Positions 4,537 to 14,866 of a stretch of 14,866 nt of DNA are shown piece after piece (position 1 is the first letter of the stretch; each line of letters begins with the position of its first letter). The DNA is from a virus, in IMG/VR virus record IMGVR_UViG_3300010388_000350, positions 1-14,866 of that record; one strand, written 5' to 3'. The notes beneath the pieces were generated by a model. That model was given only the letters and a program-made list of their open reading frames with translations, ran no database searches and was not told the origin of the DNA. Both the position numbers and the translations under genes were made by a program.

Positions 4537-5372
4537 TGCGAAATCCCATTCTTGGAATTACAGCTCAGGGAATCAAAGTTGCACCAACGGCTGTTGATTA
4601 TTTGGTTGTAGCAGGTGGAGCATCAGGCGGATTCTTTGCAGGTGGTGGCGGCGGAGCTGGCGGATTGCGTACAGCAACAAATTTTGCTGTTTCTAGCGGA
4701 TCATCAATCACAGTGACTGTTGGTGCTGGCGGTTCGCCTAGCGGTGGACAAGGCAACAATGGAAATGATTCTGTATTTTCAACCATCACATCAACTGGTG
4801 GCGGTGGTGGTTCAGGTAACGGCGGCACAGGAAACAGCGGCGGTTCAGGCGGTGGCGGTGGCGGCTTAGGAGCTGGCTCAGGCGGAGCAGGAACATCAGG
4901 TCAAGGTAATGCTGGCGGTGCAACTGTTGCAGGTTCAGGTGGCGGTGGCGGTGGCGGAGCATCAGCAACTGGATCAGCTGGAACAACACCAAGCGGCGTT
5001 GCAACTGGCGGCAATGGTGGAGATGGAACATCGAGCAGCTACTCAGGCGCATCAGTTACATATGCAGGTGGCGGTGGCGGAGCTGCACAAGATCCCCCAG
5101 CACCATCAGGCACAGGTGGAGCAGGTGGCGGTGGCACAGGTGGACAAGGAAACAACATTGTTGCACCAACAGCTGGCACAGCTAACACTGGCGGTGGCGG
5201 TGGCGGTTCATGGTTCGGTGTGAACGCAGGTGCTGGCGGTTCAGGTGTCGTGATCATTCGTTATCCTGACAGCTATGCATTGGCTACATCGACAACAGGA
5301 TCACCAACAGTGACAACCACAGGCGGATACAATATTTACAAATTCACAGGAAGTGGATCGGTGACTTTCTAA
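4536..5372 (+). CDS. Glycine-rich minor tail / fibre protein, 278 aa
   Basis: ATG 4536 overlaps the upstream stop (TAATG); the track start 4509 is less likely. DYLVVAGGASGG...GGGGGAGG, repeated G-rich blocks and the C-terminal GAGGSGVVIIRYP are typical of the phage glycine-rich fibre domain. Confidence 0.65.
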   Translation: MRNPILGITAQGIKVAPTAVDYLVVAGGASGGFFAGGGGGAGGLRTATNFAVSSGSSITVTVGAGGSPSGGQGNNGNDSVFSTITSTGGGGGSGNGGTGNSGGSGGGGGGLGAGSGGAGTSGQGNAGGATVAGSGGGGGGGASATGSAGTTPSGVATGGNGGDGTSSSYSGASVTYAGGGGGAAQDPPAPSGTGGAGGGGTGGQGNNIVAPTAGTANTGGGGGGSWFGVNAGAGGSGVVIIRYPDSYALATSTTGSPTVTTTGGYNIYKFTGSGSVTF

Positions 5373-5659
5373 TGGCACATGCAGCTGAATTAAATGAGAA
5401 TAACGAAGTCATTCGCGTTGTTGTAATTTCTAACGATTGCGAGCCAAATGTTGAAGAATTTGCTACTGAACTATTTGGTGGCACATGGAAGCAGACTTCA
5501 TATAATTCAACAATTCGCAAAAACTTTGCTGGGATTGGTTTCACATATGATCAAGCAATTGATGCATTCATCCCGCCAAAATGCCATGATGAAGCAATTT
5601 TGAATCAAACAACAGCGCAATGGGATTGCGAGAATGAGGCACACAATGTCATTTCCTAA
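5372..5659 (+). CDS. Small hypothetical protein downstream of the fibre genes, 95 aa
   Basis: ATG 5372 overlaps the upstream stop (TAATG). Motifs ELNENNEVIRVVVISND and AGIGFTYDQAIDAFIPP resemble, from memory, small proteins often found next to fibre genes. Function is unknown. Confidence 0.55.
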   Translation: MAHAAELNENNEVIRVVVISNDCEPNVEEFATELFGGTWKQTSYNSTIRKNFAGIGFTYDQAIDAFIPPKCHDEAILNQTTAQWDCENEAHNVIS

Positions 5660-6218
5660 AGGTACAGCTGCACATTTCATCGATGTTGCTTTGGCTGAAG
5701 TGGGAACTGTTGAAGAAGGCGACAACCTGACCAAATACGGCAAATTCACAAAAGCTGATGGATTGCCGTGGTGTGGATCATTTGTCAATTGGTGTGCAAA
5801 TGAGGCTGGGGTCAAGCTGCATTCAGTAGTTTCAACAGCTTTGGGAGCTCATAAATTCAAAGAGGTTTCACGCTGGCATGAGACACCACAGCTCGGCGAT
5901 TGCGCTTTCATGGATTTTCCACATGACGGCATTGACAAAATTTCTCACATTGGAATTGTTGTGGGGATCAAAGCAAAGTCAGTGATCACCATCGAAGGAA
6001 ATACAAGCGGCACAGGCGATCAACGCAATGGCGGCATGGTCATGATCAAGGAAAGAGAATTCGGTGCTGGAAAGCCTGTTGTGGGCTTTGGGCGACCAAA
6101 ATTCGTGCCTTACAAGGGCGAATATCCTGTCATCGAAGTCAAAGAATCAGCACCAAAACCTTCAAAGGAGAAGAAAAATGGAAAGCTTAAAACCATTGCT
6201 GGCAAGCTGGGGTCGTAG
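5646..6218 (+). CDS. CHAP-domain endolysin (peptidoglycan amidase/endopeptidase), 190 aa
   Basis: GAGG (5636-5639) lies 6 nt before ATG 5646; ATG 5634 is an alternative start. CHAP signatures are present: GDNLTKYG, catalytic Cys context LPWCGSFVNWC, His context ISHIGIVV, then TIEGNTS. The C-terminal tail is Lys-rich. No separate wall-binding domain is evident. Confidence 0.8.
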   Translation: MSFPKGTAAHFIDVALAEVGTVEEGDNLTKYGKFTKADGLPWCGSFVNWCANEAGVKLHSVVSTALGAHKFKEVSRWHETPQLGDCAFMDFPHDGIDKISHIGIVVGIKAKSVITIEGNTSGTGDQRNGGMVMIKEREFGAGKPVVGFGRPKFVPYKGEYPVIEVKESAPKPSKEKKNGKLKTIAGKLGS

Positions 6219-7075: not shown

Positions 7076-7744
7076 ATGGGATTTCTAGACAATTACGAAG
7101 GCAACAAAGAGCGAACAGATCGATGGATCGCGACTTACCCTGAAGGCAGACTTGAAGCTCACATCGTTGAATTCAGTGCTGAAAAGGGCTATGTGCTTGT
7201 ACAAGCTAAAGCTTGGCGCAATCAGACTGAAACAGAGCCAGCTGGCATAGATTATGCATACGGCTATCTAGCTGCCTACAACGCGAACATGAAACGCTGG
7301 ATGATCGAGGACACTACGACTTCAGCTTTGATGCGTGTCATGGCACTTGTCATGGGCGGCACTGAAAAGGCTACAAAAGAGACCATGCAACAGGTCGAGA
7401 CGATGAGCACAAAGGTTGCAACAGCTGATGTGAAAAAGGAATATGACTATTGGACAACCAAATTTGGTGATGTGCCATCATGGGATTCACAAGAAGCTGC
7501 ACAGGAAGCTGGTCTGCCTACATTGGGAACAGCTGTCAATGAAATCGCTTCACAGCTAGGCGGTGAGCTAGTCAAAGAAGCTCCACAGTGCCAGCATGGG
7601 CATATGGTGTGGCGCGAAGGCACAAGCCAAAAGACAGGCAAAGCTTGGGCAAATTACAGCTGCACAGAGAAAAACAAAGCAACGCAATGTCAGCCAAATT
7701 GGTATGTGCTGACGAGCGATGGCACATGGAAGCCACAGGTGTGA
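7076..7744 (+). CDS. Early protein of unknown function with a C-terminal Cys/His zinc-ribbon-like module, 222 aa
   Basis: It is a long clean ORF. The N-terminal ~95 aa (ERTDRWIATYPEGRLEAHIVEF...WMIEDTTTSALMRVMALVMGG) resemble, from memory, a recurrent uncharacterised phage early-gene domain. The C-terminus CQHGHMVWREGTSQKTGKAWANYSCTEKNKATQC has metal-ligand spacing. Confidence 0.6.
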   Translation: MGFLDNYEGNKERTDRWIATYPEGRLEAHIVEFSAEKGYVLVQAKAWRNQTETEPAGIDYAYGYLAAYNANMKRWMIEDTTTSALMRVMALVMGGTEKATKETMQQVETMSTKVATADVKKEYDYWTTKFGDVPSWDSQEAAQEAGLPTLGTAVNEIASQLGGELVKEAPQCQHGHMVWREGTSQKTGKAWANYSCTEKNKATQCQPNWYVLTSDGTWKPQV

Positions 7745-7938
7745 TGATGGCTGACTATGTTGAGCTCATAAACCCACAGACCATGACTTGCAAGCTGTTG
7801 TGCAATGGTGAAGTGGTTGAAGAATATGTCGTTGATCGTTGTGACAAGTGCGAAATGATCAAGCGCAAAGATGCTTTTGGCTGGCAAAAAGGCACAGGCG
7901 GCGAAAAGCTCATGTGGTTTTGTGGGTCATGCCGATGA
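7744..7938 (+). CDS. Cys-rich zinc-finger mini-protein, 64 aa
   Basis: ATG 7744 overlaps the upstream stop (TGATG). Six Cys are arranged CxxxC...CxxC...CxxC (TCKLLC, RCDKC, FCGSC). Confidence 0.5.
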   Translation: MMADYVELINPQTMTCKLLCNGEVVEEYVVDRCDKCEMIKRKDAFGWQKGTGGEKLMWFCGSCR

Positions 7939-8423
7939 TCAAGATCAATCTGACACGAGATGATGAGCTTGAATGTGCATCGGTTGCATTTAGGCGAACA
8001 TTTGAAACACCTGAAAAGGTTGATCAGAGCTTTGAAAAGCTCAACACCTTCGATGACATAGCTAGAAACTCTGAAGCCATTGGTGCTGAGATGGCAGCTG
8101 CAAAGCTGTTCGGTTTCAAGGATTGGTCGCCATCAGTGAACACTTTCAAGCGAGAAGCTGATATTGGTTCGAAAATCGAAATCAAGCACACCAAATGGGA
8201 ATCAGGTCATTTGATTATCAAGCCATCAGATCGAGATGAAGATATTGCTGTGTTGGTTACAGGCAAATCACCAACATTCTTTGTCGTTGGATGGATTCCA
8301 GTGGTGATGGCTAAAAAGCCACGATACAAGCATGACAAATCCGAATCATGGTGGGTCTCTCAGCTCAATCTTCAACCCATCGAAAACCTAGCGAGGAGCA
8401 TTTATGGAAACGCTAAACTTTGA
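7935..8423 (+). CDS. PD-(D/E)XK nuclease-fold protein (possible resolvase/endonuclease), 162 aa
   Basis: ATG 7935 overlaps the upstream stop (ATGA); ATG 7929 is an alternative start. There is a helix with Glu (IGAEMAAAKLFGF), then ADIGSKIEIKHTK, which gives a D...E-x-K arrangement. A hydrophobic strand follows (IAVLVTG...FFVVGWI). Confidence 0.45.
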   Translation: MIKINLTRDDELECASVAFRRTFETPEKVDQSFEKLNTFDDIARNSEAIGAEMAAAKLFGFKDWSPSVNTFKREADIGSKIEIKHTKWESGHLIIKPSDRDEDIAVLVTGKSPTFFVVGWIPVVMAKKPRYKHDKSESWWVSQLNLQPIENLARSIYGNAKL

Positions 8424-8565
8424 ATGTCGCGTGTGTAAGAAGGTTACAAAACAGGTCATCATGAAGATCACTGACAACCTTCCAGCTGGCGTTGAGGTGC
8501 TTCAATGCACCAAATGCGAAGTGATGGGTGTTGCACAGATTGGTGTGCATGATGCCAACCTATGA
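8404..8565 (+). CDS. Zinc-ribbon mini-protein, 53 aa (below the ORF-track cutoff)
   Basis: GAGGAG (8393-8398) lies 5 nt before ATG 8404. The sequence is METLNFECRVCKKVTKQVIMKITDNLPAGVEVLQCTKCEVMGVAQIGVHDANL, with CxxC-x23-CxxC. It overlaps the upstream gene by 20 nt and the downstream gene by 14 nt. Confidence 0.45.
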   Translation: METLNFECRVCKKVTKQVIMKITDNLPAGVEVLQCTKCEVMGVAQIGVHDANL

Positions 8566-8728
8566 ATTCAAATGTGGTGTGTGTGGCAACACTGACACAG
8601 TGACAAGATCGATCGATGCTGATGGTGAAATCCCAGCACCACAGTGCCGTGGCTGCACAATCCCGATGGAGCGAATATGGTCATTGGGTGGGATCAGCTT
8701 CAAAGGCACTGGATGGGGTCATCAATGA
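8552..8728 (+). CDS. FmdB-type (CxxC_CxxC_SSSS-like) zinc-ribbon protein, 58 aa
   Basis: The N-terminus MPTYEFKCGVCG, the second pair CRGC 20 residues later and the C-terminal FKGTGW match the hallmark layout of FmdB-family zinc ribbons. The start was chosen at ATG 8552 to give the family-typical MPTYE; ATG 8549 and the track start 8528 are alternatives. Confidence 0.65.
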   Translation: MPTYEFKCGVCGNTDTVTRSIDADGEIPAPQCRGCTIPMERIWSLGGISFKGTGWGHQ

Positions 8729-8729
8729 G

Positions 8730-8738
8730 TTATCCACA
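8730..8738 (+). promoter_or_regulatory. Perfect DnaA-box 9-mer TTATCCACA (copy 1, inside the 13-nt repeat AGTTATCCACAGG 8728-8740)
   Basis: Exact match to the high-affinity DnaA box consensus, read directly from the sequence. Confidence 0.5.
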
Positions 8739-8749
8739 GGGAGAGAAAG

Positions 8750-8758
8750 TTATCCACA
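8750..8758 (+). promoter_or_regulatory. Perfect DnaA-box 9-mer TTATCCACA (copy 2, inside the 13-nt repeat AGTTATCCACAGG 8748-8760)
   Basis: Exact consensus match, in the same orientation as copy 1 and 20 bp downstream of it. Confidence 0.5.
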
Positions 8759-8761
8759 GGC

Positions 8762-8770
8762 TGTGGAAAC
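8762..8770 (-). promoter_or_regulatory. Imperfect inverted DnaA-box-like 9-mer GTTTCCACA (7/9)
   Basis: The top strand reads TGTGGAAAC. It forms the 13-nt palindrome CCACAGGCTGTGG (8754-8766) with copy 2. Confidence 0.35.
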
Positions 8771-8823
8771 ACGCCGAAAACAGGCGCAATTCAATGAAAT
8801 GCAGAGGTGGCTCGGTACGATTC

Positions 8824-9213
8824 ATGCTCGTGAGGCGAGCCGCTGATGCGGATAGCTCGCGATCGAGGCTGAATCTATTGCCATACTTGTGCCTTATAGC
8901 GGCATTGACTTCACAAACGATGCAACCAACACAAGCTGCATCATATTCAATAGATCATTTGAAGCTTTATGCACATTCAAGATTGTTGGACTATAAAGAA
9001 TTCCAGTGTTTCAATCGCATCATCACAAAGGAATCTCGTTGGTCATACACAGCTCGCAATGGGTCACATCATGGGTTGGGTCAGATGAGATCAGAGCACT
9101 ATCGAGACCTCGATCCATATCGTCAAATAGATGCGACCATTCGCTATATAACAAAGCGTTATCAAACACCATGCAAGGCATGGGCATTCCATCAGCTAAG
9201 GAATTACTACTGA
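8824..9213 (+). CDS. Secreted or membrane-anchored lytic-transglycosylase-like (lysozyme-like) protein, 129 aa from ATG 8824
   Basis: The C-terminal domain FNRIITKESRWSYTARNGSHHGLGQM...QIDATIRYITKRYQTPCKAWAFHQLRNYY resembles small SLT/lysozyme-like proteins (catalytic E in ES-x-W, GLGQ, C-terminal AW...Y). It is preceded by a basic n-region and the hydrophobic LNLLPYLCLIAALTS...TQAAS (signal peptide or anchor). The start is uncertain: ATG 8725 (ATGA overlap with the upstream stop) would add 33 basic residues and place the DnaA boxes in coding sequence. Confidence 0.5.
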   Translation: MLVRRAADADSSRSRLNLLPYLCLIAALTSQTMQPTQAASYSIDHLKLYAHSRLLDYKEFQCFNRIITKESRWSYTARNGSHHGLGQMRSEHYRDLDPYRQIDATIRYITKRYQTPCKAWAFHQLRNYY

Positions 9214-9542
9214 TGAGCAATGGTTGGAAGAATGGAAGCACAAGCCGCTGGCGTAAGCTGAGAGCAGCTGTGATCCTGAGAGATGGTGGATGCTGTCAAT
9301 ACTGTGGCTCACAAGAAAACCTTCATGTGGATCACATCATCCCAAAGCGATTGGTTGGAGAAAACGGAGACACGATGGAGAATTTGATCACGGCTTGCAG
9401 ACAGTGCAATTTGAGCAAAGGCGGCAAATTAGCCGAATTAGGCGAAAATCAATCAAAAGGCGGTTTTTTTGGTAAGCACAGGACACCCCCGACTCTCCAT
9501 GTTGGATATATACCCCAAAATGGCAGCGTAAGTCATGACTAA
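9213..9542 (+). CDS. HNH endonuclease (packaging-associated position), 109 aa
   Basis: ATG 9213 overlaps the upstream stop (TGATG). The HNH signature is present: CCQYCGS...LHVDHIIPK...NLITACRQCNLSKG. It lies immediately upstream of, and overlaps, the large terminase gene. Confidence 0.85.
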   Translation: MSNGWKNGSTSRWRKLRAAVILRDGGCCQYCGSQENLHVDHIIPKRLVGENGDTMENLITACRQCNLSKGGKLAELGENQSKGGFFGKHRTPPTLHVGYIPQNGSVSHD

Positions 9543-11037
9543 GGGCGAACAGGTCATGGCACAATGGGTCGCGGTTGAAAGTGGCTCAGATCGGCTCACA
9601 CAGGTTTTTGAGCCGCAATTAGAACCGCTTATTGGCTCAGCAACACCAAGAATCCACACTCCACTGAATGATTTGCCGTCTAGGGGCTTCGAATTGATCG
9701 ATTTCGCTGACACAATCTTTGAAAATGGCTTCATGCCGTGGCAGAAATGGCTTGCTGAACATAGCTTGAAATACAAGCCTGATGGTCGCTGGCAGCATCC
9801 AATCACAGTCACGACTGTTGCAAGGCAGAATGGAAAGAGCACATACATGCTCGCGCTGATTGCAATGAAGCTTTTCCACTGGAATGAATCGCTTCAGGTA
9901 GCTTCAGCTCACAGATTGGTGACATCGCTGGAGCAATTTCGATCTCTCGTGGCAATCATTGAAGCCAATGATGATCTTGCAAAGCGTGTGAAACGCATCC
10001 GCTGGCAGCATGGCGCGGAAGAAATCGAGACTTTGGAAGGCTGTCGATTTGTCATCAAGGCTGGCGGTTCGGCGGCTCGCGGATTGAGCAAGCCTGAAAG
10101 TGTGCATTTGGATGAATTACGCGAAATGCGAGACATCGAATCTTTTGCCAGTTTAAGGTACACCCTGATGGCGGCGAAAAATCCTTCCGTCAGTGCCTTC
10201 ACGAATGCTGGCGATATTCATTCCGTGGTGCTGAATTCTCTCCGTGAAAGAGGGGTCGCAGCGGCGGCAGGTGCAGCTGATGACATTGGCTATTTTGAAT
10301 GGTCAGCGGCAAGCGATGACATCACTGATCCTGAGAATTGGAAAGCTGCCAATCCAGCAATGGGTCACACGATCAATGTGGACAACATCAAAGCTGTGCT
10401 CAATGATCCGCCTGATGTTGTGATGACCGAGGTGCTTTGCAGATGGGTCACATCAATCAACAGCTGTGTGGATTCTGCAAAATGGCAAGCTTGCAGCGAT
10501 GACACTGTGGAGCTTGATCCTGAAAAACTCACATGGCTGGCGATCGATATTTCACCCGACAGAAAACACGCTGCATTGGTGGGGGCTCAGAAGCGTGGGC
10601 TGGATGAAGGCTTCAATGTAAAGCTTCTCCACACATGGACAAATGATCTCCAGCTAGATGACAAAGCGATCGCAAATGATGCGGCTCATTATTGCCGAAA
10701 GTATGCGATGGAATATCTTCTTTTCAGCCGCCGCACTTCAGGTGCTGTTGCAGCTCGAATGCAGCCAGCTGGAATCCCGATCTTTGACATGGATTCGGCG
10801 TATCCACAAGCTTGTGATGAAATGCTCGGTGCTATCAATTCAGGCAGACTTCATCACAAACCGAACTCAGAGCTGACAACACAAATGCTTTCAGCTGTGC
10901 AATTACGCCGTGGCGATGGCGGTTGGGTCATTGGTCGCAGAGCTTCACAAGCTGCCGTGTGTGCAGCTGTGGCGACAGCTTTGGTCACACACTTTGCGAC
11001 ACGCCAAGAGACGGAAATTGATATTTTGGTGGGCTAG
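9535..11037 (+). CDS. Terminase large subunit, 500 aa
   Basis: Walker A-like VARQNGKST, Walker B-like SVHLDELRE and a C-terminal nuclease-type WLAIDISPDRKHAALVGA are present. It is followed by the portal gene. ATG 9556 (MAQWVAVE) is an alternative start. Confidence 0.9.
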   Translation: MTKGEQVMAQWVAVESGSDRLTQVFEPQLEPLIGSATPRIHTPLNDLPSRGFELIDFADTIFENGFMPWQKWLAEHSLKYKPDGRWQHPITVTTVARQNGKSTYMLALIAMKLFHWNESLQVASAHRLVTSLEQFRSLVAIIEANDDLAKRVKRIRWQHGAEEIETLEGCRFVIKAGGSAARGLSKPESVHLDELREMRDIESFASLRYTLMAAKNPSVSAFTNAGDIHSVVLNSLRERGVAAAAGAADDIGYFEWSAASDDITDPENWKAANPAMGHTINVDNIKAVLNDPPDVVMTEVLCRWVTSINSCVDSAKWQACSDDTVELDPEKLTWLAIDISPDRKHAALVGAQKRGLDEGFNVKLLHTWTNDLQLDDKAIANDAAHYCRKYAMEYLLFSRRTSGAVAARMQPAGIPIFDMDSAYPQACDEMLGAINSGRLHHKPNSELTTQMLSAVQLRRGDGGWVIGRRASQAAVCAAVATALVTHFATRQETEIDILVG

Positions 11038-11062: not shown

Positions 11063-12199
11063 ATGGGATTTCGTGATCTATTTGTGCCTACTGTGAAAAC
11101 AGCCGCGCCAGCTGCAATTGCTGATGTTGCAGCTTCACTTGCGCCTGTCAATACAACCGATTCGCTGAATTCATATTGGGTAGCAGCTGGTCAAATAGCT
11201 ACACGCGAAGAAGCTATGTCAATTCCAACAGTCGCTCGCGGCAGAGGAATCATATGCTCATCGATCGCTTCAATCGGCATTGAAGTATGGGATCGATCAA
11301 CAGGCGAAGAAATTGAAGATGTGCCACGCGTATTTCGCACACCTGATCCGCGCATCAATGGTGCAGCCACTTATGTGTGGACAGCGGAAGATTTGCTGTT
11401 TCATGGTTATGCCTATTGGCAGATTACTGAACTTTACAAAGACACGATGCGAATTCGAAGTGTGCAACGCATTGCACCAACACGCGTGACTATCAACACC
11501 AATGCATTGGGAACAGAGATTGTTTCGTACATGGTGGATGGTTCATATGTACCAAATAGCGGTGTTGGTTCACTTGTGGTGTTTTATGGAAACGATGAAG
11601 GACTTCTCAATCGCGCAGGGCGAACAATACGAACAGGCGCAGAATTAGAGAAGGCGGCTGCAAATTATGCTCGCGAGCCAATTCCGTCAATGGTTCTCAA
11701 ATCAAATGGCACAACATTGCCAGCTGACCGCATCAGAGCTTTGCTCGATGCATGGGGAGCTTCTCGCCGTAATCGCAGCACAGCTTTTCTGAATGCTGAT
11801 GTTTCACTTGAAACTGTTGGCTTTGATCCCGAAAAATTGCAGCTCGCTTCAGCGAGAAGTTACATCGCGACCGAGCTTGCAAGAGCAATCGGAATCCCAG
11901 CATTTTTTGTTGATGCTGAAACTGGATCGAGCATGACATATAGCAACAGCGAAACCACAAGAAAAAGCTTGCTGGATTTTTCTTTGCGACCATTGATGAC
12001 AGCCATTGAAGAAAGAATGTCAATGCCGGACTTCTTGCCTTCATCACAAATTGCAAAATTTGATTTGGATTCATACCTACGCGGCAGCGCGGTTGAAAGA
12101 GCCAATGTCTACAAGATTCTCAACAGCATCGTGGATGCTGAAGGAAATGCAGCAATCACAATCGATGAAATCAGAAAAGCAGAGGAGATGATCTCGTGA
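11063..12199 (+). CDS. Portal protein (HK97-family type), 378 aa
   Basis: It lies between the terminase and the protease/capsid gene. The N-terminal region AMSIPTVARGRGIICSSIASIGIEVWD and the later ARSYIATELARAIGIPAFFV are typical of Phage_portal family proteins. Confidence 0.85.
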   Translation: MGFRDLFVPTVKTAAPAAIADVAASLAPVNTTDSLNSYWVAAGQIATREEAMSIPTVARGRGIICSSIASIGIEVWDRSTGEEIEDVPRVFRTPDPRINGAATYVWTAEDLLFHGYAYWQITELYKDTMRIRSVQRIAPTRVTINTNALGTEIVSYMVDGSYVPNSGVGSLVVFYGNDEGLLNRAGRTIRTGAELEKAAANYAREPIPSMVLKSNGTTLPADRIRALLDAWGASRRNRSTAFLNADVSLETVGFDPEKLQLASARSYIATELARAIGIPAFFVDAETGSSMTYSNSETTRKSLLDFSLRPLMTAIEERMSMPDFLPSSQIAKFDLDSYLRGSAVERANVYKILNSIVDAEGNAAITIDEIRKAEEMIS

Positions 12200-13767
12200 A
12201 GGTAACAACACCATTCAAGGTCAGTGCAGCCGATACAAATTCGCGAACCATTTCAGGTCGCATTCTTGAATTTGGCGTCGCTGCAAATGCATCAACAGGC
12301 AAAGTGATGTTCGAAAAAGGATCAGTCGAACCACAGCTCGTGAAGCTTAATTTGGAGCACCAATCAGATCGCCCGATCGGTCGCGCAATCGATATTTCAC
12401 TTTCAGATGATCAATCAACGATGGATGGAATTTTTAAGATTGCCAACACCACAGCTGGTTCAGATAGCTTGGTCGAGGCACAAGATGGGCTTCGCGATGG
12501 CTTCTCGATCGAAGTTGAAGCCGAAGAATATACATGGGCTGAAGATGGAACACTTGTGATTTCAAAAGGTACTTTGACAGGCGTTGCATTGACACACAAT
12601 CCAGCTTTCAAGAATGCTCGTGTCGAAGAAGTCGCAGCAACAGAAGGCGAAGAAGAAACACCTGAAGTTTCTGAATCCGATGTGGATGCAGAAAACCAAC
12701 CAACAACAGAAGGAGACGAAGTGGAAAACACCGTCAATGACGCTTCAGCCGTAGAGACGGTAGAAGCTACTCAGTCAATCAAGGCAGCTGCACCAATCGT
12801 GGGTGGATCATTCACAAAGCCACGCCTTGAATTCACAGCTGCAAAGTATGTGGAAAACACAATCCGCGCTGCAATGGGCGATGAAGATGCTCGTCAGTAT
12901 GTTCGCGCAGCTGACAACACAACCGACAATGCTGGTCTTGTACCAACACGCCAGCTTTCAGAGGTTGTCAATGGACTTTCAACAATGATCCGTCCATCAA
13001 TCGATGCAATTTCTCGTGGTGCATTGCCTGATGCTGGAATGACTTTTGAAATTCCAAAGATCACAGTTGCACCAACAGTTGCTGTGACAGCTGAAGATGG
13101 CACACCATCAGAGACAGATCAAAATTCTGCCTTCATTTCTGTGGATGTTAAGACCTTCTCAGGTCAGCAAACATTTAGCACACAAATTCTCGACCGCAGC
13201 TCACCTGCATTCTTTGAGGAGCTTGTACGAAATATGGCGGCAGCTAAGGCAAAGGCAGAGAATGCTTATGTTTCAGCAGCACTTGTTTCAGCAGCAACAG
13301 CTGACGGCACAACCACAACAACATACCCAACAGCCGCAGAGCTTCTTGGTGTTGTTGCTCGTGGTGCTGCATCAGTTTATGGCGCGACAGCTGGTCTCCC
13401 AAATGGTTTCGCAAAGAACATCATCATGGGTACAGGACAGTGGTCAAATGTAATGACACTGAATGATTCAGGTCGTCCAATTTACACAGCACAGCAACCA
13501 ATGAACGCTGGCGGCGTAGCTCGTCCAGATTCATTGCGTGGCAATGTTGCAGGTCTTGATCTATATGTTGATCCATCACTTGCAGCAACAGATGCTGACG
13601 GCACAATCTTGATCGTCAATCCAGATGCATACACATGGTATGAGGGAAACACATATCGCCTTCGCGCTGATGTTGTAGCTTCAGGTCAGATCACTATCGG
13701 ATATTACGGTTACGGAGCTTTGGCAACAAAGATCGCAGCTGGCGCATTCAAGAATAACAAGGCTTAA
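12196..13767 (+). CDS. Fusion of an HK97-type (S78) prohead protease domain and an HK97-fold major capsid protein, 523 aa
   Basis: GTG 12196 overlaps the portal stop (GTGA), and AGAGGAG (12181-12187) lies upstream. Residues 1-~145 carry LNLEHQSDRPIGRA (His55), RDGFSIEVE (Ser104) and LTGVALTHNPAFKNARV. Residues ~150-205 form an acidic linker. Residues ~205-523 look like an HK97-type capsid protein (AGLVPTRQLSEVV..., FEIPKITVAP..., GLDLYVDPSL..., ILIVNPDAYTWYE). Confidence 0.8.
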   Translation: MKVTTPFKVSAADTNSRTISGRILEFGVAANASTGKVMFEKGSVEPQLVKLNLEHQSDRPIGRAIDISLSDDQSTMDGIFKIANTTAGSDSLVEAQDGLRDGFSIEVEAEEYTWAEDGTLVISKGTLTGVALTHNPAFKNARVEEVAATEGEEETPEVSESDVDAENQPTTEGDEVENTVNDASAVETVEATQSIKAAAPIVGGSFTKPRLEFTAAKYVENTIRAAMGDEDARQYVRAADNTTDNAGLVPTRQLSEVVNGLSTMIRPSIDAISRGALPDAGMTFEIPKITVAPTVAVTAEDGTPSETDQNSAFISVDVKTFSGQQTFSTQILDRSSPAFFEELVRNMAAAKAKAENAYVSAALVSAATADGTTTTTYPTAAELLGVVARGAASVYGATAGLPNGFAKNIIMGTGQWSNVMTLNDSGRPIYTAQQPMNAGGVARPDSLRGNVAGLDLYVDPSLAATDADGTILIVNPDAYTWYEGNTYRLRADVVASGQITIGYYGYGALATKIAAGAFKNNKA

Positions 13768-14811: not shown

Positions 14812-14866
14812 AAAAGTGGCAACGACAATCATCACGGGTCGCGATCTCACATTGACGATTGCGACC
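14812..14866. repeat. Terminal direct repeat, right copy (identical to 1-55)
   Basis: Same 55-mer as 1-55. The length equals a commonly used assembler k-mer, so it is most simply a circular-contig closure overlap. Confidence 0.95.
14816..14866 (+). other. Duplicate of the first 51 nt of the major tail protein gene (assembly overlap, not a second gene)
   Basis: It is identical to 5-55 and begins with the same GTG. Confidence 0.9.

Follow-up and report, generated by a model that had tools for sequence, protein, structure and literature searches.

A conserved cluster of predicted DnaA-binding sites within the first codons of a gene in a family of minimal tailed phages

DnaA gives a bacterial host its sequence-specific route to helicase loading, and mobile replicons make use of the boxes that it binds: the origins of P1 (oriR), pSC101, F and RK2 need DnaA boxes plus an initiator of their own, and in priming signals of the ABC-primosome type a DnaA box is reconstituted in the stem of a single-strand hairpin. 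The basal unwinding system combines tandem DnaA boxes, a GC spacer, DnaA-trios and an AT-rich region (PMC8287927); by the criteria drawn from that work, an origin has at least three DnaA-trios (3'-NAN-5') no more than 16 bp from the proximal box, and tandem boxes no more than 3 bp apart. The core shared by the DnaA-reactivating sequences DARS1 and DARS2 consists of three boxes at strictly conserved spacing, with the opposed boxes 5 bp apart (PMC6868365), the injection stop signal (iss) region of T5-like phages holds eight boxes, in pairs 3 bp apart, within a long untranslated terminal repeat (bioRxiv 10.1101/866236), and DnaA regulates promoters and blocks transcription at dnaA, nrd and gua (PMC8203912). 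Here we describe a cluster of DnaA boxes at positions 8728 to 8770 of the IMG/VR virus record IMGVR_UViG_3300010388_000350, the whole analysed stretch of which (14,866 nt) is called the window below. The cluster is very likely a DnaA binding site, to judge from its sequence and from its maintenance across a large family of phages, and we weigh below what such a site might do.

The box cluster and its maintenance across relatives

The cluster and the two genes beside it are laid out as follows:

8552-8728, + strand: gene for an FmdB-family zinc-ribbon protein (Pfam Zn_ribbon_8, TIGR02605), the stop codon of which overlaps the ATG at 8725 as ATGA
8725-9213, + strand: gene for a membrane-anchored transglycosylase-like protein of 162 aa (from PHROG, NCBIfam and continuity of the open reading frame (ORF) in relatives)
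8728-8740, + strand: repeat copy 1, AGTTATCCACAGG, with DnaA box 1 inside it at 8730-8738
8748-8760, + strand: repeat copy 2, AGTTATCCACAGG, with DnaA box 2 inside it at 8750-8758
8762-8770, - strand: inverted weak box 3, GTTTCCACA on the bottom strand (TGTGGAAAC on the top strand)

Boxes 1 and 2 are both exact copies of TTATCCACA, and no further exact copy occurs on either strand of the whole window. Box 3 agrees with TTATCCACA at 7 of 9 positions and with TTWTNCACA at 8 of 9, and it converges on box 2, with which it has the palindrome CCACAGGCTGTGG (8754-8766) in common. A preliminary description, made from the letters of the window, had pointed out the duplicated AGTTATCCACAGG, the inverted box and the palindrome, all of which we confirm, and had held that the pair of exact boxes was not due to chance. 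The expected numbers bear this out: exact 9-mers should occur 0.13 times on both strands of the genome given its base composition, or 0.11 times under a third-order Markov model, and an analytic estimate for pairs no more than 30 nt apart gives 2.5e-5 to 3.4e-5. Between 8350 and 9250 the box repeat is the only convincing close tandem repeat, and no iterons were found in that interval.

Upstream regions of relatives were anchored on the transglycosylase domain, independently of the boxes, yielding 116 non-identical regions from relatives that reach down to 44% identity in this domain and 72% in the terminase large subunit (TerL). Conservation in related contigs had been suggested as a check, and the outcome is clear: at least two DnaA boxes stand at the locus in 115 of the 116. 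A strict TTWTNCACA pair on the + strand is present in 98, one strict box accompanied by one single-mismatch box in 12, and boxes on the opposite strand or in mixed orientation in 5; the only one of the 116 without boxes is L185 (L numbers denote individual related contigs). All boxes are inverted in L012 (CTGTGGATAACCTGTGGATAAC...TCTGTGGATAAC), in L023 and in L241, which has three perfect inverted boxes; orientation is mixed in L013 and L026 (TGTGGATAA-cc-TGTGGACAA, then TTATCCACA), and L018 is inverted as well. Spacing from start to start is 13 nt in most relatives, and 20 nt in the clade of the window and independently in L057; the inverted classes space their boxes 11-12 nt apart, and the two weak boxes of L018 are separated by 23 nt. 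Six complete genomes have no other conserved box cluster.

A sequence logo was built from the 106 relatives that fall in the 13-nt (+,+) register. In 97 of them box 1 reads TTATCCACA, with variation almost only at position 5, while box 2 reads TTAT[C 58%/A 20%/G 23%]CACA followed by GG; its position 5 carries 0.59 bits, the remaining positions about 2 bits (93-100% conserved), and the spacer 0.5-1 bit. The flanks are constrained too, with A at -2 (99%) and G at -1 (97%) before box 1, and overall 87-99% conservation of the A-G before box 1 and the G or G-G after the boxes. Throughout this set position 3 is A or T; G occurs there in boxes of clades whose orientation is inverted or mixed, and in the third box of L178, giving TTGTCCACA, which we take to be the actinobacterial DnaA-box consensus. 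The substitution profile thus fits TT(A/T)TNCACA, with change confined to the degenerate positions 5 and 3, and the extended motifs are those of E. coli oriC, GTTATCCACAGG being R1 and AGTTATCCACAG being R4. In most clades an inverted box with one or two mismatches follows 0-3 nt past box 2 (GGTGCAAAA, TGTGCGCAA, TGTGCGAAA); the inverted third box of L178 is a perfect TTGTCCACA, and this relative has six boxes within 190 bp.

All of this is written into protein-coding DNA. The stretch from 8729 to 8823 had at first been called ambiguous in coding status; it is coding, and an intergenic reading is ruled out by the transglycosylase frame, which is open back to box 1 in 115 of the 116 relatives (the other two frames are open in 0 and 3). 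The in-frame start usually lies 5-11 nt upstream of box 1 and is ATG in 89 relatives, TTG in 17 and GTG in 9, and the boxes occupy codons 2-12. Residues 73-162 match PHROG transglycosylase families and the NCBIfam aggregation-promoting-factor C-terminal domain; the first ~50 codons, ahead of the membrane helix, carry the boxes together with a stem-loop (described below) and appear free to change. Indels between and after the boxes whose lengths are not multiples of three are compensated by a shifted start codon. In the window, box 1 is read as S-Y-P-Q (codons 2-5) and box 2, in another frame, as V-I-H-R; across clades box 1 encodes S-Y-P-Q or K-L-S-T and box 2 K-L-Y-T or V-I-H-R, and inverted boxes encode quite different peptides. 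Because the boxes are retained regardless of frame, spacing and strand, the repeat belongs to the DNA and not to the peptide, as had been proposed, and there are strong comparative grounds for regarding it as a selected double-stranded DNA binding site with the specificity of DnaA.

Weaker matches were surveyed over the whole window. It contains 13 9-mers within one mismatch of TTATCCACA, where codon permutation within genes gives an expectation of 4.1 +/- 2 and none of 300 permutations reaches the observed number; the one-mismatch sites are at 5772, 5915, 6819, 8967, 9326, 10377, 10625, 10800, 12849, 13922 and 13980. A similar excess is seen in L174, L178 and L218, and is absent in L190 and L234. 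The site at 8967 is a third strict match (TTATGCACA), which we rejected as a functional box on finding that its first base varies synonymously, within a Leu codon, in relatives.

Comparison with described DnaA-box systems

The cluster is like oriC and the basal unwinding system in having tandem, same-direction consensus boxes, the upstream one closest to consensus, and like oriC in that its flanks are identical to those of E. coli R1 and R4; in the inverted-class relatives the boxes are 2 bp apart and followed by a 4-bp GC spacer, again as in the basal unwinding system. Unlike that system, the window has neither DnaA-trios nor an adjacent AT-rich DNA unwinding element (DUE), the tandem boxes are separated by 11 bp in the window, by 4 bp in most relatives and by 2 bp in the inverted class only, box orientation is not fixed, and the element lies inside a translated phage gene. 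We rejected an origin of the basal-unwinding-system type on these grounds, namely the lack of trios and of an adjacent DUE and a box gap and polarity outside the criteria given above.

Among phages, the closest parallel is with the T5-like iss region: in both, consensus or near-consensus box pairs are kept family-wide, near the genome end expected to enter the cell first and beside inverted repeats, and in both the role of the boxes is a proposal. In the window boxes 2 and 3 form an inverted repeat and the cluster lies near the right cos end, whereas there is no terminal repeat and the spacing differs. The cluster is further unlike iss in having 2-4 boxes, in coding DNA, in a genome with no replication genes, whereas T5 encodes its own replication machinery. 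As in the plasmid origins and at the DnaA-stimulated pR/ori-lambda (PMC8203912), a mobile replicon would here borrow host DnaA through consensus boxes near a control region; unlike here, those systems have iterons with a Rep protein, or an O protein. An iteron/Rep-type replicon with auxiliary DnaA boxes was accordingly rejected, with no iterons at 8350-9250 and no initiator gene recognisable in the window.

With DnaA-regulated promoters the cluster has in common two or three boxes at the start of a transcription unit in an orientation that is not critical; it differs from them in that the boxes lie in the first codons of an ORF and the promoter is only a candidate. Within about 100 bp of the boxes lies the conserved TANNNT hexamer described below, which has no -35 element at proper spacing and lies half inside a covarying stem. 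The DARS core likewise has three boxes, two in the same direction and one opposed, yet the gap to the opposed box ranges over 0-3 bp here, and in some clades that box is weak or missing; with a tandem spacing of 13 or 20 nt and an architecture that differs by clade, the cluster falls outside the spacing rules of DARS, and a DARS-like core was rejected. A priming signal formed by a hairpin of boxes 2 and 3 was also rejected, as position 5 of box 2 shows no covariation with the position that it would pair with (A-C 20, C-C 18, C-G 28, G-C 18).

Tandem boxes occur in other viruses as well. At least 120 other IMG/VR viral contigs (5-166 kb) carry two perfect TTATCCACA boxes within 12 nt; L246-L325 are such contigs among the matches listed, and L278, L293 and L302 have several tandem TTATCCACA pairs per contig.

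Elements and genes around the cluster

The following elements lie between the boxes and the presumed end of the packaged genome:

8770-8775, + strand: CACGCC motif, directly 3' of the cluster in all orientation classes
8816-8821, + strand: TACGAT, a TANNNT hexamer resembling a -10 element (from 23 diverse relatives)
8819-8875, + strand: 57-nt stem-loop (from fold energy and covariation)
8819-8824 with 8870-8875, + strand: outer stem of the stem-loop
8827-8830 with 8864-8867, + strand: middle stem of the stem-loop
8835-8860, + strand: core of the stem-loop, GCGAGC-CGC-tgat-GCG-gata-GCTCGC
8940-9000, + strand: AT-rich patch (72% AT), 180-200 nt downstream of box 2
9487-9498: likely cos site, 12 nt, CCCCGACTCTCC (from the ends of many independent linear contigs)

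The CACGCC motif is nearly invariant at logo columns 47 and 49 (100% and 99% C). In the TANNNT hexamer the T, the A and the final T are invariant in the 23 diverse relatives, though the A is a third codon position. TTGAC stands 7-9 nt upstream of the hexamer in most clades and is lacking in the window; the combination TTGAC-N7-9-TANNNT is unique in each genome (for example L174:13941, L178:13985 and L218:13368) and is retained even where the downstream hairpin has been replaced. Because the spacing is only 7-9 nt, TTGAC is not the -35 element of the hexamer, and a consensus scan for sigma-70 promoters and terminators found none at the locus and fewer promoter-like sites genome-wide than in shuffled sequences.

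The fold energy of the stem-loop is -28.2 kcal/mol (z = -3.1) for RNA and -15.4 (z = -3.0) for DNA. Its core is 97% paired with 4 compensatory pairs, which 0 of 500 shuffles reach, and slid controls are 20-43% paired; over the whole rod, pairing is 85%, changes on both sides affect 11 pairs and 50 cells, and covariation scores 0.295 versus 0.097. The core is read in two frames, differing by clade, and is flanked by a -1/+1 indel pair, from which it follows that it is a nucleic-acid element; its abundant G-U pairs indicate the sense strand. The hexamer's 3' half takes part in the pairing of the covarying stem. The element has no match in Rfam and so was set aside as a member of a known RNA family, and no T-tract was found after the hairpin. 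In the subclade of L169, L218 and L233 the boxes and TTGAC/TANNNT are kept and a different hairpin with an A-rich tract is present. The stem-loop might act in RNA processing, termination or antitermination, or might serve as the hairpin of an origin.

In many independent contigs the first nucleotide corresponds to 9499 (ATGG...) and the last to 9486 (...GGACAC), and the intervening 12 nt, CCCCGACTCTCC, are missing at both contig ends, a pattern that is likely the signature of a cos site with a 12-nt cohesive overhang. The right physical end lies 756 nt from the box cluster and, by analogy with lambda, would be packaged last and injected first. The HNH endonuclease ORF (9213-9542) crosses cos, so that only circular or concatemeric DNA has it whole. 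Just upstream of cos, a run of G is followed by a run of T (GGCGGTTTTTTT, 9459-9470).

The window represents a phage genome assembled as a circle of 14,811 bp, with positions 1-55 repeated at 14812-14866, and every gene is on the + strand. In addition to the two genes above, we recognise the following:

9213-9542, + strand: HNH endonuclease
9535-11037, + strand: TerL
11063-12199, + strand: portal protein
12196-13767, + strand: prohead protease (Peptidase_S78) and major capsid protein, fused as a single gene
up to about 5372, running round the circle, + strand: tail genes
5634-6218, + strand: CHAP endolysin
7076-7744, + strand: protein with a C-terminus like that of mycobacteriophage L5 gp49
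7744-7938, + strand: small zinc-ribbon protein
7935-8423, + strand: phrog_18407 protein
8404-8565, + strand: zinc-ribbon protein

No cultured phage shows DNA-level similarity to the window (megablast). TerL matches are below 30% identity and overwhelmingly from actinophages, and the capsid-protease fusion is common only to the smallest known actinophages, of 14-17.5 kb, such as those of Microbacterium cluster EE and Arthrobacter cluster AN, Rhodococcus RRH1, and Gordonia and Curtobacterium phages (PMC5513430). The phage is a 14.8-kb cos siphovirus akin to the smallest actinophages, and its host, judged by TerL and capsid homology, is probably a freshwater actinobacterium. A scan of GTDB genomes gave one match, L241 (JAIXWE010000062.1), a whole-phage contig of 14,197 nt that is a complete genome of the family, with its three perfect inverted boxes, binned into an 'Alphaproteobacteria' metagenome-assembled genome; this placement is probably a binning artefact and is uninformative on the host. 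In IMG/VR the relatives amount to at least 596 confirmed stretches by TerL and 409 by the transglycosylase.

The gp49-like protein is encoded by one of the family's core genes and has 2,521 metagenomic homologues. Its AlphaFold2 model (pLDDT 64) has an N-terminal alpha-beta-beta-beta-alpha domain and a C-terminal zinc ribbon (PF25690), and comparison of the model with PDB folds gave no significant match; the protein may bind nucleic acid and may be relevant to replication, and a Rad52/Sak-like annealing domain in it is a conjecture of ours. The phrog_18407 protein, also family-wide, has no family or PDB match and contains a D...E-I-K motif (EADIGSKIEIKHTK) recalling PD-(D/E)XK nucleases. In the tail region, a glycine-rich protein (PF21722, Gly_rich_2) is encoded by GC-rich (up to 61%), GGN-rich imperfect repeats at 4600-5250.

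Possible roles of the cluster

The family very probably recruits host DnaA, whether for replication or for gene control. The reading that we favour, with a probability of roughly 40%, is recruitment for phage replication, and our reason is that the genome has no recognisable replication gene: among the window genes, Pfam, PHROGs and NCBIfam revealed neither an initiator, helicase, loader, primase or polymerase family nor a Rep, O-like or helix-turn-helix (HTH) protein, as the preliminary description had also reported for its list of replication proteins. In outline, the element packs two high-affinity tandem boxes, plus one or two that are weaker or inverted, into about 45-75 bp; placed where the opening codons of a phage gene tolerate sequence change, it would recruit host DnaA to the circularised phage genome, and the recruited DnaA would start, or license, replication by the host replisome; the strands might be opened by supercoiling, by transcription through the site, or by way of the neighbouring stem-loop region, instead of by an adjacent AT-rich element. 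Small actinophages in culture that share the capsid-protease fusion have HTH or 'O-like initiator' genes, and no DnaA boxes were found in three of them (Loca, Decurro and RRH1), which, set against boxes without an initiator here, makes a weak complementary pattern. The more specific proposal, that this abundant family of freshwater siphoviruses of about 14.5 kb has no initiator of its own and that its minimal origin consists of host DnaA boxes within a gene, as an oriC mimic, is one that we put forward tentatively and consider doubtful as it stands.

Several observations weigh against a role in replication. The earlier proposal of an origin or control site survives in its DnaA boxes, which are real, and loses the adjacent AT-rich element and the DnaA-trios of a typical origin: AT content over 8700-8900 is 40-57%, so that no unwinding element lies beside the boxes, as had already been remarked, and reading the window by eye after box 2 revealed no run of trios (L012 has a minimal run of three upstream, such as chance could give). 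The AT-rich patch nearest to the boxes, at 8940-9000 (median 70% AT in relatives), ranks in the top five of the genome's 40-nt windows for AT content, but it lies about 180 nt off, is too distant from the boxes for a DUE of the basal-unwinding-system type, and is the start of a conserved enzyme domain, the coding of which may explain its AT richness. Box orientation flips between clades, which is at odds with an origin that works directionally from boxes to DUE. The five family-wide small proteins (the gp49-like protein, three zinc-ribbon proteins and the phrog_18407 protein) could hide an unrecognised initiator or could alternatively include factors for recombination-dependent replication. 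Finally, one lineage does without the boxes. It was sampled twice independently, in L185 (7900-8200) and L366 (reverse strand), which are 93% identical and syntenic, and in both the boxes and the GC-rich stem-loop are replaced by an extremely AT-rich, palindromic, Lys-coding segment with the inverted repeat TAAGTACTTTAAG...CTTTAAGTACTTA and a promoter-like TTGACA...TGCTAGACT. No new gene is present in the sequenced part; the replacement is compatible with a swap of origin modules.

The cluster can also be read in terms of transcription, with DnaA as a transcription factor or roadblock that tunes transcription into the packaging and late genes, an account that is the main rival, though less likely than not, and in which DnaA could act together with the stem-loop (as terminator, attenuator, processing site or antiterminator RNA) or with a promoter at TANNNT. 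Sites of transcription factors commonly have free orientation and spacing, as the boxes do, DnaA is known as a regulator, lambda pR/ori-lambda being one case (PMC8203912), and the cluster stands, in a genome with all genes on one strand, at the boundary between small non-structural genes and the block formed by transglycosylase, HNH, cos, terminase and structural genes. The invariant TANNNT, with TTGAC upstream in most clades in its unique combination, would suit such a role, but no sigma-70-type promoter is seen at the locus and none that convinces genome-wide, and TTGAC is both too close for a -35 element and absent in the window. Similarly, the covarying sense-strand stem-loop directly downstream, with its many G-U pairs, could serve in the transcript, yet a transcript begun ~7 nt past the hexamer would lose the outer helix, and the T-tract of a terminator does not follow the hairpin. 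Alternatively, the cluster might capture or manipulate DnaA, either by a membrane hold on the first-entering end or by titration or nucleotide exchange that disturbs host initiation when many copies of the phage genome are present. We think this unlikely. Its position close to the right cos end would place it first in the cell if lambda-like order applies, and T5-like phages keep DnaA-box pairs near their first-injected end (bioRxiv 10.1101/866236), though the T5 injection-stop model is itself a proposal only; the genome-wide enrichment of one-mismatch boxes in the window, L174, L178 and L218 would fit this reading, but L190 and L234 lack it and the few boxes per genome make a weak sink; and two same-direction boxes plus one opposed recall the DARS core (PMC6868365), which however needs a fixed 5 bp between its opposed boxes.

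Two further explanations dispense with DnaA. It had been suggested that the repeats are operators of the adjacent zinc-ribbon protein, resembling DnaA boxes by coincidence, and one might extend this to mimicry or to the gp49-like protein: three zinc-ribbon proteins and the gp49-like protein, with its nucleic-acid-binding-like fold, are conserved family-wide, and the conserved motif runs 2-3 nt past the 9-mer. We disfavour the idea and consider it more improbable still, in that the match to the DnaA consensus is 9/9, variation is free exactly at the positions where DnaA is degenerate, and the extended flanks equal those of E. coli R1 and R4. Moreover, the gene directly upstream of the boxes differs among relatives, FmdB is often not the neighbour, and no FmdB homologue was detected in L234, a complete genome that retains the boxes. 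That the repeat arose by chance duplication, or merely follows from the protein encoded there, is hardly credible at all: the repeats do lie inside an open reading frame, but about 3e-5 such pairs are expected, and the comparative data refute the idea, with boxes kept in three frames and on both strands with differing peptides. We accordingly rejected a chance or peptide repeat. The identity of the repeats to DnaA boxes, their selective maintenance as DNA and the lack of recognisable replication genes are established; that DnaA binds them, and that it would serve replication by doing so, we infer.

DnaA-box clusters as such are already known from chromosomes, plasmids, lambda, P1 and T5-like phages. 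What is new here is that a very large family of minimal phages without recognisable replication genes strictly retains one, that it sits within translated codons, with frame and strand varying, and that it is paired with a covarying structured element. The locus is an example of a compact genome in which a DNA element for protein binding and a structured nucleic-acid element lie on top of a coding segment that is translated yet tolerates sequence change; it urges caution in annotation and is a helpful example for finding non-coding function within genes. Replication of the smallest tailed phages, those of 14-17 kb that lack replication enzymes, is a standing question, and in a family that is very common in lake metagenomes, with more than 590 TerL-bearing contigs in IMG/VR, the strictly kept cluster provides a concrete, testable handle on it. 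Were the oriC mimic to prove true, it would be a case of tailed-phage replication wholly dependent on the host initiator, and would explain how the smallest tailed phages manage without replication genes.

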